A model generated the notes under the pieces. The model made no database searches, was not told the origin of the DNA, and was given only the letters and a program-made list of their open reading frames with translations. The translations under genes and the position numbers were made by a program. From positions 387,203-451,202 of the forward strand of contig CAYITG010000001.1 in assembly GCA_964366415.1 (NCBI GenBank): a stretch of 64,000 nucleotides of DNA, in the 5' to 3' direction. Positions 44,576 through 55,889 of the stretch are shown here, in pieces (within the stretch, counting starts at the first letter, position 1; the number at the start of each line of letters is the position of its first letter). This stretch comes from Candidatus Woesearchaeota archaeon. GTDB taxonomy: Archaea; Nanobdellota; Nanobdellia; SCGC-AAA011-G17; UBA489.

Positions 44576-45280
44576 ATGTGGAATTATGATCATCTTCTTA
44601 CCTCTCACAGTCATAATATTTTAAAGATTAAAACACCAAGACATAATAGAAATCTTGCAGAATTCTTAGGCATCTTATTTGGTGATGGCAGCAGTTATCG
44701 ACGAGAAATTGGGAAAAAGATTCGAGATTACCAAATTCGTATTGCTGGTCATTCAAGCAATGATAAAGATTATCTTATAAATTTTGTTAAACCACTTGCC
44801 AAAGATTTATTTGGGATAGAAGGAAAGATACATCCTCATTATAATGAAGACATCAACTGTTTGTATTTGAAACTTAATGGTAAGTTACTTTCTTATTTTT
44901 TAGAAAATATTGGTTTTCCTCCAGGAAATAAAATAAAGAATAGATTAGTGATTCCTAATTGGATTAAAACAGACACCTCTTATTTAACAGCATTTTTAAG
45001 AGGTTTAGTTGATACTGATGGTTCTATTTATAGGATGTCGAATAAGGATCCGCAACTCATACGTTTGGCCATTAAAAATTTTATACCTGGATTTTTAGAT
45101 AGTTTAAATTCGTGTTTACAAGAACTGGAATTTCATCCATGCATTATTCGATCAAGTAGTCAGATTTTTCTTTCTAGGAAGGAAGATATACAGAAATATA
45201 CTAAGAAAATAGGTTTTAATAACCCAAAACATATATATAGGTTTAGAGCACTTTCTAAAAATATTAGCCCCGTAGTGTAG
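44576..45280 (+). CDS. Double-motif LAGLIDADG endonuclease-like protein (paralog A)
   Basis: Two LAGLIDADG motifs (LGILFGDGSS and LRGLVDTDGSIY) about 100 aa apart; the last 15 nt overlap the 5' end of the downstream tRNA. Confidence 0.75.
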   Translation: MWNYDHLLTSHSHNILKIKTPRHNRNLAEFLGILFGDGSSYRREIGKKIRDYQIRIAGHSSNDKDYLINFVKPLAKDLFGIEGKIHPHYNEDINCLYLKLNGKLLSYFLENIGFPPGNKIKNRLVIPNWIKTDTSYLTAFLRGLVDTDGSIYRMSNKDPQLIRLAIKNFIPGFLDSLNSCLQELEFHPCIIRSSSQIFLSRKEDIQKYTKKIGFNNPKHIYRFRALSKNISPVV

Positions 45281-45371
45281 TGGCCTATAACCCTTAGGGT
45301 TGGCAAAGCACGCGAGACTCTGGTAGCGATGGGGATATCTCGCAACGGAAGTTCAAATCTTCCCGGGGCTA
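45266..45371 (+). tRNA. tRNA-Gln (anticodon CTG) with two putative introns
   Basis: Acceptor AGCCCCG/CGGGGCT. D-stem GTGT/GCAC flanks a 29-nt D-loop that contains the hairpin TAACCC-TTA-GGGTTG (about 20 nt extra). Anticodon stem CGAGA/TCTCG with loop CTCTGG, a 13-nt insert (TAGCGATGGGGAT) at 37/38, then A; T-arm GGAAGTTCAAATCTTCC. Confidence 0.55.
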
Positions 45372-46241
45372 CTTCTTTGTTACTTCTCTTATTACAACTT
45401 CAATTTCATGTGTTTTAAGAGGCGAATAATATCTTTCGCTTACATCAATTTTTACTCCATCTGGACTATGGCGTGGTAACACGCCAAGAAGGTCTACAAT
45501 TCCATTATCTCCCGTCACAATAATTTGGGTATTCCCTGTTCCTGCCGCATTTGCTAGAGCGTATGCAGTGAGAAGATTATCTACACCGCCCGTATTAATT
45601 CGATTCGATTCTGCTATTTGCGTACTGTATTGTAAGACTGGATCTACTTTACATCTATTAAGCATTTTTAATGTTTCATCTCTTTGACATGCACACCCCA
45701 TTTGTCTTGCAAGACGGGATTTTTCTATAAAATATCTTTCCATCATTTTTTTGTACGAACCATTCTGCGTTTCCATCCTTTTTTTAAGACATCTATCATC
45801 TCCTGTAATGTATTCTTCTAATATTTCTGGGAGAATAGTTACGTCGTTGCGATGAATTAATCTCTCTAGTTCATTGAATTGTAATTCCTGCACTTTTTGA
45901 AATTCATACCATAATTCATCATACTCTTGGCCTATACCGGCTAGGCCAGATGCACAAGCATTAAGAAACGATGCATTGCTAAGGCGCAGATTTCTCTCTC
46001 CACATTGACCATAGATATGACTTGACTCTAACAAAAAAGAGGTGTCTAGCCAGTAATGTTTTGTTCCATCTCGTTCTTCAAAAATACTTTTGTACACTTC
46101 TAGAAATTCTGCAGGATGAATTGATATCCGCAGGCTTGAAAATCCTTTAATTGGTTCTGCTGTTTTATGGAAAGAATGATCATCTATGTAAAAACCAAAG
46201 TCTTCTAAACATGTTTTGTGTCTTTTTGTTGTCTCTGTCAT
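45369..46241 (-). CDS. Hypothetical protein
   Basis: 290-aa ORF with no recognisable motif; a NYN/LabA-like C-terminus is considered separately in the findings. Confidence 0.3.
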   Translation of the reverse strand: MTETTKRHKTCLEDFGFYIDDHSFHKTAEPIKGFSSLRISIHPAEFLEVYKSIFEERDGTKHYWLDTSFLLESSHIYGQCGERNLRLSNASFLNACASGLAGIGQEYDELWYEFQKVQELQFNELERLIHRNDVTILPEILEEYITGDDRCLKKRMETQNGSYKKMMERYFIEKSRLARQMGCACQRDETLKMLNRCKVDPVLQYSTQIAESNRINTGGVDNLLTAYALANAAGTGNTQIIVTGDNGIVDLLGVLPRHSPDGVKIDVSERYYSPLKTHEIEVVIREVTKK

Positions 46242-46309
46242 CTTTTGCTTTGTTGGTCTTTTTATTCAAAAGACGTTACCTTTATATTTTTATACTTTTA
46301 TCTTCTGTT

Positions 46310-47248
46310 ATGCCCTCTTTTCCACTATTATCGTTTCCTGCAATATTAAGCCCAATGGCTGGCGTTACTGATGTTGCTTTTCGTACTTTGGCAAAGCAAT
46401 ATGGCGCAGGATTAACCTATACTGAGTTTGTGAATAGCACGGGATTAGTAAGAGGTAATGAACAGGCTAAAAGAATGATTGCCATTGATTCTTCTGAGCA
46501 CCCTGTTGCCATCCAGTTATTTGGACATAGCGAAGAAGATGTGATTGCTGCTGCAAAATATGTTGAACCTTTTTTTGATATTATTGATATTAATTGCGGA
46601 TGTCCAGCATGGAAAGTGATTAAGACTGGAGCAGGCAGTGCTTTATTAAAAGAACCATTACGCATTCGCACTTTTGTCGAACATTTAGTTGACGCTGTTA
46701 GAAAACCTATCACTGTAAAAATTAGGGCAGGCATTGATGATACTACGATCAACGCTGTTGAAGTTGCCAAACTTGTTGAAGAAGCTGGCGCTGCCGCCAT
46801 TGCTGTTCATGGACGAACACAACAGCAAGGATATTCAGGTACTGCAAATTGGGAGATCATTAAAAACGTCAAAGAAGCAGTTCATATTCCTGTTATTGGG
46901 AATGGTGATGTGTTCACGCCAGAAATATTTGCACAACGCTTAGAAGAGAGTGGAGTTGATGCTATTATGATTGCTCGCGGTGCTATGGGGAACCCTTACA
47001 TTTTTCAGCAAATCAAAGATTACCTTGAAAAAGGAGCGTATGACTTTAGATCTGGCGTAGAGCAATTTTTTGATTATTTGCCTTTTGCAGAACGACACCA
47101 TATTTCGTTCTCTGTTATCAAACAACATGCATTGTATTTTACGAAAGGTATGCGTGGTGGAGCACAGTTACGCGAACTGATCAGTCACTCTCTTTCCTTA
47201 GAAGAGTTACATACTCTTTTGGAAGCAAGCCATCAACAAGTTTTTTAA
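46310..47248 (+). CDS. dus: tRNA-dihydrouridine synthase (Dus family)
   Basis: Start taken at the internal Met (MPSFPLLSF...); Dus TIM-barrel motifs SPMAGVTD and IDINCGCP plus catalytic Cys/Lys pattern. Confidence 0.75.
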   Translation: MPSFPLLSFPAILSPMAGVTDVAFRTLAKQYGAGLTYTEFVNSTGLVRGNEQAKRMIAIDSSEHPVAIQLFGHSEEDVIAAAKYVEPFFDIIDINCGCPAWKVIKTGAGSALLKEPLRIRTFVEHLVDAVRKPITVKIRAGIDDTTINAVEVAKLVEEAGAAAIAVHGRTQQQGYSGTANWEIIKNVKEAVHIPVIGNGDVFTPEIFAQRLEESGVDAIMIARGAMGNPYIFQQIKDYLEKGAYDFRSGVEQFFDYLPFAERHHISFSVIKQHALYFTKGMRGGAQLRELISHSLSLEELHTLLEASHQQVF

Positions 47249-50164: not shown

Positions 50165-51166
50165 ATGAGATCACGAGGAAATTATATTGTAGATAAGAGA
50201 TTAAAGTTTAAAAGAGGTTATCAGAGATTATTTTTTGAAGAAATAAAGAAATATTCAAAGAGGACTTGGCAGGAACTTGCAGATGAATTAGGAATCTCTT
50301 ATCACACTTTAAATTGGGACTGGTATTCCGAAAAAAGTACTATTCCTAAAAACTTTGCTAAAAAATTAATAAAGAAGTATCCTTTTAAAGAATGGGAATA
50401 TATCTACAATAATTGGGTTGTGGAAGAGCTAGTACCAAAATGGGGGCAAATAAAAGCCGGTCTAAATAGAGAAAAGAAGATTCTTATTCCGCCCATCAGT
50501 GAAAAACTTGCGGAATTTCTCGGTGCTGCATTAGGTGATGGACATTTAGATTACAAGGAGTTTACTTTTACAAATCATCTAAATGAGAAAGATTATATGA
50601 ACTATATTAAAGATATGATTATGATACTTTTTGGTTTAAATTCAAAAATTTTTTTAGGATCTAAAGATAAAAAAGCTATTGTGATGGATACATATTCTAA
50701 AGCCCTTGTGAATTTTCTTTCCAAAAATGGATTAAAAATCGGCAATAAGATAAAAAATAAAGCAAGACTCCCGGGGTGGGTTTTTGAGAATAAACGCTAT
50801 TCAAGTGCAGCCTTACGGGGTCTTTTTGATACTGACGGTGGGATTTATCACAAAGAGAAAAAATATAAACGTGCGATTATTGAATTTCAAACAAACTCTC
50901 CTTCCATACACAATGATATTCTTAAACTCTTATCTATTTTAAATTTTACTCCTTCTAAAGGAAATAACGGGAAAAAAGCCCTTGATCTTCGCATACAAAA
51001 CCAAAACGAAGTACATGCTTTTTTTCAAGTAGTTGGAAGTAGCAATCCAAAAAATATTCTTAAATATAATATCTTTACTAAAGAGGGATATGTTCCCTTA
51101 TCTAAAGAGATAGAGAGCCTCCTCCCTCATTTCAAAAAAGAGATGCTCCCTTTCAAAGCAAGATAA
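50165..51166 (+). CDS. Double-motif LAGLIDADG endonuclease-like protein with an N-terminal HTH domain (paralog B)
   Basis: N-terminal HTH (TWQELADELGISYHTL); LAGLIDADG motifs LGAALGDGHL and LRGLFDTDGGIY. Collinear with paralog A (DKDY..NY.K, IKNK.RLP.W, NPKNI). Confidence 0.75.
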   Translation: MRSRGNYIVDKRLKFKRGYQRLFFEEIKKYSKRTWQELADELGISYHTLNWDWYSEKSTIPKNFAKKLIKKYPFKEWEYIYNNWVVEELVPKWGQIKAGLNREKKILIPPISEKLAEFLGAALGDGHLDYKEFTFTNHLNEKDYMNYIKDMIMILFGLNSKIFLGSKDKKAIVMDTYSKALVNFLSKNGLKIGNKIKNKARLPGWVFENKRYSSAALRGLFDTDGGIYHKEKKYKRAIIEFQTNSPSIHNDILKLLSILNFTPSKGNNGKKALDLRIQNQNEVHAFFQVVGSSNPKNILKYNIFTKEGYVPLSKEIESLLPHFKKEMLPFKAR

Positions 51167-55103: not shown

Positions 55104-55889
55104 CTAAGCATATCTTTTCAAGCTATCTATAGTATAAGAAGAGCCATATTTGGTTAAAATATCATTAATAACTGACCTGAAGAGCAATGTTTCTTTTTTA
55201 TTTAATGATACTCTCTGAAGGTCATACCATCCATACTTTTTTCTTGGTTGATGTGAGATGGCCGGATTATAGCTATACTTCTTAAATATATTGTAGACAT
55301 TGGAAGCTAATCTTTTTGAGATTGTATTGAAAACAAAGCGGTCTTTTATGTAACCGTCACTTAACGTTAATCCCACCATTACTCCACGTATAAAATCATT
55401 GTTATATTGATTAATGTTCCTTTTTAGTTTAATAGTCAATGTTTTATTCTCTTTGTATGCGGTATACTTATCGATAAAATCATAAATAAACTTAGAGTTC
55501 ATTATCATTATTCCACGATTACTTTCTTCTTCTAATACTACTCTGCAAGTTTTGCCAAATACAATTAATAAGATATTTTTGATAAAATTGATTAATAGAG
55601 TGTCGCGTTTGTCTAGGTGTATTTTTATAACATAACTCCATTTATCTTTAAATTTTGATCCATCGCCCATCCAAATACCTATTAAAATTCCTATTGATAA
55701 TTGATCATTATTTTTAAGAAATTTTATGATATTATTCTTCCTCATTAAACTTCTTTTATTAAGATGGTAATACAGATTCCCAATGCTATAATCATATTTT
55801 GTTTTTAATTTTTTTAAAGAGTCTCCATTTTTATAATCCTTTATTATCTTTTCTAGAATCATTTCATGCATAGGGCATTGATCACTCAC
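55104..55889 (-). CDS. Divergent double-motif LAGLIDADG endonuclease-like protein with an N-terminal HTH (paralog C)
   Basis: HTH-like N-terminus (DSLKKLKTKYDYSIGNLYYHL); LAGLIDADG-like motifs IGILIGIWMGDGSKF and IRGVMVGLTLSDGYI; flanked on both sides by tRNA genes. Confidence 0.55.
   Translation of the reverse strand: MSDQCPMHEMILEKIIKDYKNGDSLKKLKTKYDYSIGNLYYHLNKRSLMRKNNIIKFLKNNDQLSIGILIGIWMGDGSKFKDKWSYVIKIHLDKRDTLLINFIKNILLIVFGKTCRVVLEEESNRGIMIMNSKFIYDFIDKYTAYKENKTLTIKLKRNINQYNNDFIRGVMVGLTLSDGYIKDRFVFNTISKRLASNVYNIFKKYSYNPAISHQPRKKYGWYDLQRVSLNKKETLLFRSVINDILTKYGSSYTIDSLKRYA

Follow-up and report, generated by a model that had tools for sequence, protein, structure and literature searches.

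The window analysed here, a stretch of 64,000 nt, comes from a member of the Woesearchaeales (DPANN) with a genome of 895,721 bp in 4 contigs (38% G+C, 96% complete), and the sequencing runs containing this DNA are groundwater metagenomes. The locus under study consists of a gene for tRNA-Gln(CUG) and two ORFs that run into it from opposite sides (Table 1). The upstream ORF encodes a free-standing LAGLIDADG protein in which both motifs, LAEFLGILFGDG and FLRGLVDTDG, retain their acidic residues (GDG/DTDG) and neither an intron nor an intein surrounds the gene; the closest solved relatives of the protein are intein endonuclease domains. It starts 690 nt upstream of the tRNA gene and ends with AGC CCC GTA GTG TAG, which are nucleotides 1-15 of the tRNA, so the overlap proposed in a preliminary description of this DNA is real and consists of four sense codons and the stop at nucleotides 13-15. 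The stop codon of the convergent ORF is the reverse complement of the last three nucleotides of the tRNA. As the two ORFs overlap its ends, the tRNA gene has no free flank on either side. A T-rich tract lies directly 3' of the tRNA gene, and the next gene after the convergent ORF encodes a dihydrouridine synthase (Dus).

Table 1. Positions of the features discussed (window coordinates, unless a contig of this genome, G000, or a locus, L, is named).
Feature	Position	Strand	Description
LAGLIDADG gene, free-standing, double-motif	44576..45280	+	234 aa; Pfam LAGLIDADG_3, E 7e-12
TATA-like element ATATATATA	45231..45239	+	-35 to -27 of the tRNA, inside the LAGLIDADG ORF
tRNA-Gln(CUG) gene	45266..45371	+	106 nt, CCA not encoded; RF00005 45.5 bits; ARAGORN on spliced form
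Predicted exon 1	45266..45287	+	acceptor 5' strand, U8 A9, D-stem 5' strand GUGU, D-loop AGUGGCCUA
Predicted intron 1	45288..45307	+	20 nt, D-loop, between A21 and G22, relaxed HBh' motif
Predicted exon 2	45308..45323	+	D-stem 3' strand GCAC, G26, anticodon stem 5' strand, loop CUCUGG, G37
Anticodon CTG	45320-45322		
Predicted intron 2	45324..45336	+	13 nt, canonical 37/38, strict minimal BHB motif
Predicted exon 3	45337..45371	+	A38, anticodon stem 3' strand, variable region, T-arm, acceptor 3' strand, A73
Convergent ORF	45369..46241	-	290 aa, no Pfam family
Dus gene	46151-47248		next gene after the convergent ORF
LAGLIDADG genes beside tRNAs	window 44576-45280, 50165-51166, 55104-55889; loci L111-L140		
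tRNA-Gln(TTG) paralog	G000:C1:616492-616564		73 nt, intron-less, D-loop AGCGGCCTA
Further long tRNA genes	G000:C1:162-265, C1:733713-733832, C1:725665-725773, C2:28621-28716, C2:5927-6021		
EndA	G000:C1:457855-458466; L001:1474-2088	-	204 aa, ~6.6 kb past the window end
Gene X in relatives	L003:1012-1425, L112:576-995, L113:705-1169, L026:1967-2380		

The tRNA gene reads AGCCCCG-TA-GTGT-[29 nt]-GCAC-G-CGAGA-CTCTGG-[13 nt]-A-TCTCG-CAAC-GGAAG-TTCAAAT-CTTCC-CGGGGCT-A. All four stems are perfect, namely the acceptor stem AGCCCCG/CGGGGCT (followed by the discriminator A), the D-stem GTGT/GCAC, the anticodon stem and the stem of the T-arm GGAAG-TTCAAAT-CTTCC. The D-stem encloses 29 nt with a hairpin AACCC-TTA-GGGTT, and the anticodon arm, CGAGA-CTCTGG and A-TCTCG, is interrupted by 13 nt (TAGCGATGGGGAT); each of the structural elements named in the preliminary description, from the acceptor stem and T-arm to the long D-loop with its hairpin, is thus present in the sequence. 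That description would have been overturned by a covariance model favouring another fold or isotype, and the model RF00005, applied with relaxed filters to the region 45150-45500, reports a tRNA with a score well above its cut-off of 29 bits (E 9.7e-9), aligned along all 71 positions of the model; the D-loop holds an insert of 24 nt and the anticodon loop one of 16 nt. The same match was returned by an Rfam tRNA search of the whole genome. Minimum-free-energy folding of the 106-nt sequence also yields a cloverleaf, with a local structure for each insert (z = -2.72 relative to shuffled sequences).

The gene was reported neither by ARAGORN with its defaults nor by a default-filter Rfam scan of the whole window at the gathering threshold. 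When introns were allowed, ARAGORN labelled the unspliced sequence as Cys or Ala, and both labels were rejected as wrong. Removal of 45288-45307 and 45324-45336 yields a 73-nt CUG cloverleaf that is identified by ARAGORN as tRNA-Gln(ctg), and removal of the D-loop insert alone is sufficient for ARAGORN to report Gln(ctg) with a 13-nt intron; the isotype, the anticodon and the number of introns given in the preliminary description were therefore correct. Other Gln genes of the clade likewise have A1-U72 as the first pair, A73 and a D-loop of 9 nt (AGTGGCCTA in the spliced product). Among the tRNA matches of this genome, no other gene carries a CTG anticodon.

The boundaries of the two inserts were placed using the geometry of the bulge-helix-bulge (BHB) motif, in which the central helix has 4 bp and each 3-nt bulge is cut between its second and third nucleotides. 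The 13-nt interruption, which the preliminary description had placed after position 37, lies between nucleotides 37 and 38 and has the strict hBHBh' form, although a minimal one. Its central helix is complete (C32-G, U33.G, C34-G, U35.G), its two bulges are GG|U and AU|A, its outer helix is the anticodon stem of 6 bp and its inner helix is a single A-U pair closing a GCGA loop. The D-loop insert, earlier estimated at about 20 nt near position 20/21, is exactly 20 nt long and is placed at A21/G22 by both the geometry and the orthologous genes. Its central helix is formed by G18-C39, C19-G38 and C20-G37 (gene numbering) together with a G17.A40 mismatch, its bulges are UA|U on the 5' side and AA|G on the 3' side, the latter abutting the D-stem, and its inner hairpin has 5 bp (AACCC/GGGUU). 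The motif has no outer helix, so that it corresponds to the relaxed HBh' form and not to the strict one, and both this feature and the G.A mismatch count against the splicing interpretation. Motifs of matching quality were obtained in 0.7% of shuffled sequences for the D-loop region and in 3.6% for the 13-nt insert.

No gap is needed to align the spliced product with six Gln(CTG) orthologs that lack introns (identity at 50-58 of 73 positions) or with the intron-less Gln(TTG) paralog of the same genome (56/73). The orthologs and the paralog all start with AGCCC and finish with GGGCTA, and all seven have the 9-nt D-loop of the spliced product. This comparison bears on whether the same two-intron gene might have a D-loop intron with other boundaries, either 18 nt (45289-45306) or cut one base to the left, at 20b/21. 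In the enumeration of possible BHB motifs, a version with gene position 23 as the last of the 5' exon and position 41 as the last of the intron scored equal to the preferred model, and the resulting 75-nt product is likewise accepted as Gln(ctg) by ARAGORN; it would, however, retain an 11-nt D-loop that neither the paralog nor any of the six intron-less orthologs possesses. The one-base shift gives an identical product and is invisible in it, as an A stands at both junctions. In six other genera the intron lies directly before nucleotide 22 with the central helix in the same register, and other boundaries than A21/G22 are therefore considered distinctly unlikely.

The evolutionary history of the gene was traced in 13 Gln(CTG) genes from the same order, that of the present genome (G000) included. 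Intron-bearing orthologs were found by a simple stem-pattern script, having been missed by multi-locus Rfam scans. Six of the genes are intron-less and 73 nt long (G010, G011, G032, G042, G048, G050), four contain the D-loop intron only (G007, G009, G019, G030), and three contain both introns (G000, G005, G051). The canonical introns of G005 and G051, of 12-13 nt, are homologous to the one studied here and show the same pairing with the anticodon loop. D-loop introns are present in several Gln(TTG) genes as well. One of these, in G002 (L012), which belongs to the same genus, has a 19-nt D-loop intron that is absent from the Gln(TTG) gene of the present genome, indicating that intron turnover is fast even within a genus.

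In seven tRNA-Gln genes from seven genera (six besides the present one), the D-loop intron is located at A21/G22 with its central helix in the same register. The second and fourth pairs of this helix are always G-C and C-G, respectively, and the first (G.A, G.U or G-C) and third (C-G, U-A or U.G) pairs vary; the inner hairpins range from 0 to 9 bp and are unrelated in sequence. The relaxed HBh' structure is thus kept among orthologs despite sequence change, a pattern that would be expected of a selected structure and is unlike that of an insert retained in the mature RNA. In independent DNA assemblies belonging to two other studies, the tRNA carries both inserts without any change, and one independent contig differs by four substitutions, all of them in the flanking ORFs. 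Neither an intron-less allele nor any joint was seen in these independent DNA contigs.

Intron-rich tRNA genes are the rule in this organism. The genome has 35 matches to the tRNA model, of which around a dozen measure 84-120 nt, the inserts lying in their D-loop, T-arm or anticodon stem. Inspection by eye suggests that Ala(TGC) has inserts in the D-loop and at 37/38, that Gly(TCC) has inserts in the D-loop and T-arm, and that others measure 95-109 nt. Increased disruption of tRNA genes is already known in DPANN, including one Woesearchaeote (PMC5829648).

These observations also bear on the question of whether the gene is a decaying or non-functional copy in which one or both inserts are left in place, or in which the mature RNA retains the D-loop insert as an enlarged D-arm. 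The genome does encode a second glutamine tRNA, with the anticodon UUG, so that the cell may be able to do without the CUG gene; in addition, the D-loop motif is relaxed, the splicing endonuclease EndA found in the genome has no specificity loop, and standard finders miss the gene. Decay is nevertheless difficult to reconcile with perfect stems in the only CUG-anticodon gene of the genome, with a tRNA sequence that stays constant across strains as the neighbouring ORFs vary, and with an insertion site and pairing that were kept by compensatory changes in seven genera. Furthermore, similar inserts occur in many other essential tRNAs of this genome, and the cell must therefore be able to splice them. 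Decay or retention is accordingly rated as extremely improbable, and the locus very probably represents a functional Woesearchaeales tRNA-Gln(CUG) gene interrupted by two protein-spliced BHB introns.

For this functional two-intron gene, transcription, cleavage and ligation of the precursor can be proposed from sequence features. Transcription would start from the TATA-like box within the 3'-terminal part of the LAGLIDADG ORF, the putative promoter of the tRNA. Most of the orthologous or LAGLIDADG-flanked tRNA genes compared are preceded by a similar A/T-rich box at an equal distance (L112, L128, L003, L006 and L013; weak in L005, absent in L113). The box falls within the codons of the conserved C-terminal NPKH-I motif of the LAGLIDADG protein. 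The LAGLIDADG coding sequence thereby seems to double as the tRNA promoter, and any read-through transcript cut by RNase P would presumably lose the stop codon of the LAGLIDADG ORF. In the precursor, the 13-nt insert would fold locally into a strict BHB on the anticodon stem, and the 3' end (GGC) of the 20-nt insert would pair with G18 G19 C20 of the D-loop and, together with the 5-bp hairpin, form the relaxed HBh' motif. As the two motifs are predicted to fold independently, no fixed order of splicing would be required. A single α-type EndA would cut after the second nucleotide of each 3-nt bulge, at four sites in total, and RtcB would join the three exons into the 73-nt tRNA, to which CCA would be added after transcription since it is not encoded.

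Both enzymes of this proposed pathway are encoded in the genome. RtcB scores 569 bits, and EndA is an α-type protein (PF01974, 103 bits; PF02778, 51 bits) with a Lys/Glu-rich N-terminal extension of 40 aa. Its Y140, H150 and K181, invariant in 11 sequences from Woese- and Pacearchaeota, are read as the catalytic Tyr-His-Lys triad. Searches of the genome with Pfam models and with the α sequence as queries revealed this single gene and no second EndA subunit. The alignment with EndA of M. jannaschii has no gap between the catalytic Tyr and His, a property invariant in the 11 sequences, and the enzymes of N. equitans (NEQ205) and ARMAN-2 have Lys-rich inserts at this point. Relaxed motifs are said to need (αβ)2 or ε2 enzymes with an inserted specificity loop (PMC5829648, PMC6379350), and a published survey linked DPANN α4 enzymes to an inserted loop (PMC5829648). 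The searches found no second subunit in the host, and its EndA has no insertion between the catalytic Tyr and His; both points count against the splicing interpretation. Judged by its sequence, a loop-less α-type EndA amid many relaxed introns does not fit the published link between loop and gene disruption; the plain α-type EndA of this clade may cut relaxed motifs without a specificity loop, against the published rule.

The upstream LAGLIDADG gene has a patchy distribution among the relatives. An ORF of this family runs into tRNA-Gln(CTG) in four genera (G000, G005, G011 and G019). In G005 and G011 it lies directly upstream of the tRNA in the same frame and with the same TAG, the proteins ending in ...SPVV* and ...SPMV*, respectively, and in G019 it enters the tRNA in a different frame and stops inside the D-loop intron. 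In the latter three genomes the LAGLIDADG gene sits between the tRNA and gene X, a small conserved gene. In G051 and G007, gene X and the tRNA are adjacent, separated by a spacer without a LAGLIDADG gene, and in seven more genomes no such gene was found within 1.4 kb upstream of the tRNA. Gene X encodes a Cys-rich, Zn-ribbon-like protein and is a conserved divergent neighbour of tRNA-Gln(CTG) across families; tblastn did not find it in the present genome. With four filled loci and nine relatives with empty ones, the LAGLIDADG gene is, judging from these sites, a separate and optional insert in the 5' flank of the tRNA gene, and its frame simply continues to the TAG at tRNA nucleotides 13-15. 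No duplicated 5' end of the tRNA flanking the LAGLIDADG gene was detected in the window.

The association of these genes with tRNAs extends beyond the glutamine locus. A tRNA gene is located within 1.5 kb at 29 of 30 loci with LAGLIDADG homologs in relatives, often flush with the ORF; tRNA density would predict such proximity in roughly 15-20%. Of the four LAGLIDADG paralogs in the present genome, three abut tRNA genes. The stop codon lies inside the 5' end of a tRNA at L113, L121, L128, L005 and L112, and some copies contain in-frame stops. A literature search returned no publication that describes LAGLIDADG genes next to tRNA genes in DPANN. Free-standing homing endonuclease genes, such as phage T4 SegB, are known to adjoin tRNA genes and to be optional among relatives. 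SegB is, however, a phage gene of the GIY-YIG family, whereas the present gene belongs to the LAGLIDADG family, resides in the genome of a cellular archaeon, has a predicted nuclease activity and, unlike SegB, shares its last 15 nt with the tRNA.

Given this association, the introns and the LAGLIDADG gene might be regarded as one unit, in which the 5' half of tRNA-Gln(CTG), when uninterrupted, is the target of the nuclease and the introns persist by destroying it, a BHB-intron version of collaborative homing. Precedents for collaborative homing exist in phages (PMC2790892, PMC3984707), the LAGLIDADG gene is flush on the tRNA in four genera and absent at the same locus in nine others, and many of the tRNA-adjacent homolog loci have D-loop introns. 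The two elements do not track each other at this locus, however, as introns are found at three of the four loci with the gene and at four of the nine without it; G011 has the LAGLIDADG gene and no intron, and G051 has both introns and no LAGLIDADG gene. The target site of the nuclease is also purely hypothetical. The link between introns and nuclease thus found no support here, and a single unit is considered unlikely. If it were true, it would provide a route at the DNA level by which archaeal tRNA introns spread or are retained, and it would account for the richness of introns in Woesearchaeal tRNA genes.

Non-canonical introns at 20/21, 22/23 and other sites, and several introns in one tRNA, are established in archaea (PMC4090602). 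In Thermoproteales and other Crenarchaeota, tRNA genes likewise contain at least two BHB introns (Sugahara 2007/2008; reviewed in PMC4090602), at sites such as 20/21 or 22/23 together with 37/38, and such genes are missed by standard finders (PMC4090602). The crenarchaeal hosts, however, have an (αβ)2 EndA with a Crenarchaea-specific loop, whereas the present host is a small-genome, mesophilic DPANN archaeon from groundwater whose introns are very short (12-29 nt at this site). A close parallel is pre-tRNA-Glu(UUC) of Methanopyrus kandleri, which also combines a relaxed HBh' D-loop intron with a strict 37/38 intron, and whose EndA, like the present one, has no specificity loop (Kaneta et al. 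2018, PMC5829648). It differs in isotype and lineage (Euryarchaeota as opposed to DPANN), in an (αβ)2 enzyme as compared with the single α-type gene found here, and in that splicing of its substrate was tested in vitro, whereas splicing of the present precursor is proposed from sequence; in the M. kandleri case the canonical intron is removed first (PMC5829648). ARMAN-2 (Fujishima 2011, PMC3239211) is similarly an ultrasmall archaeon with many non-canonical and multiple tRNA introns, but has a three-unit ε2 enzyme with a specific loop, in contrast to the EndA of this clade without the insertion between Tyr and His.

As multi-intron tRNAs, D-loop introns combined with canonical ones and disrupted DPANN tRNA genes have been published (PMC5829648, PMC4090602), the two-intron tRNA-Gln in itself adds one case to a known class. 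The added value of the locus lies in the series of intron gain and loss at one site, the conserved overlap of ORF and tRNA, and the question of EndA specificity. For genome annotation, the only CUG-anticodon glutamine tRNA gene of this genome is missed by ARAGORN and default Rfam searches, and its absence would be wrongly recorded. The 13 related genomes provide a natural series for a single tRNA with zero, one or two introns, and the same locus displays both filled and empty sites for a homing-endonuclease gene. The clade would also constitute a good test of the rule that ties relaxed splicing motifs to special enzyme architectures or inserted loops.
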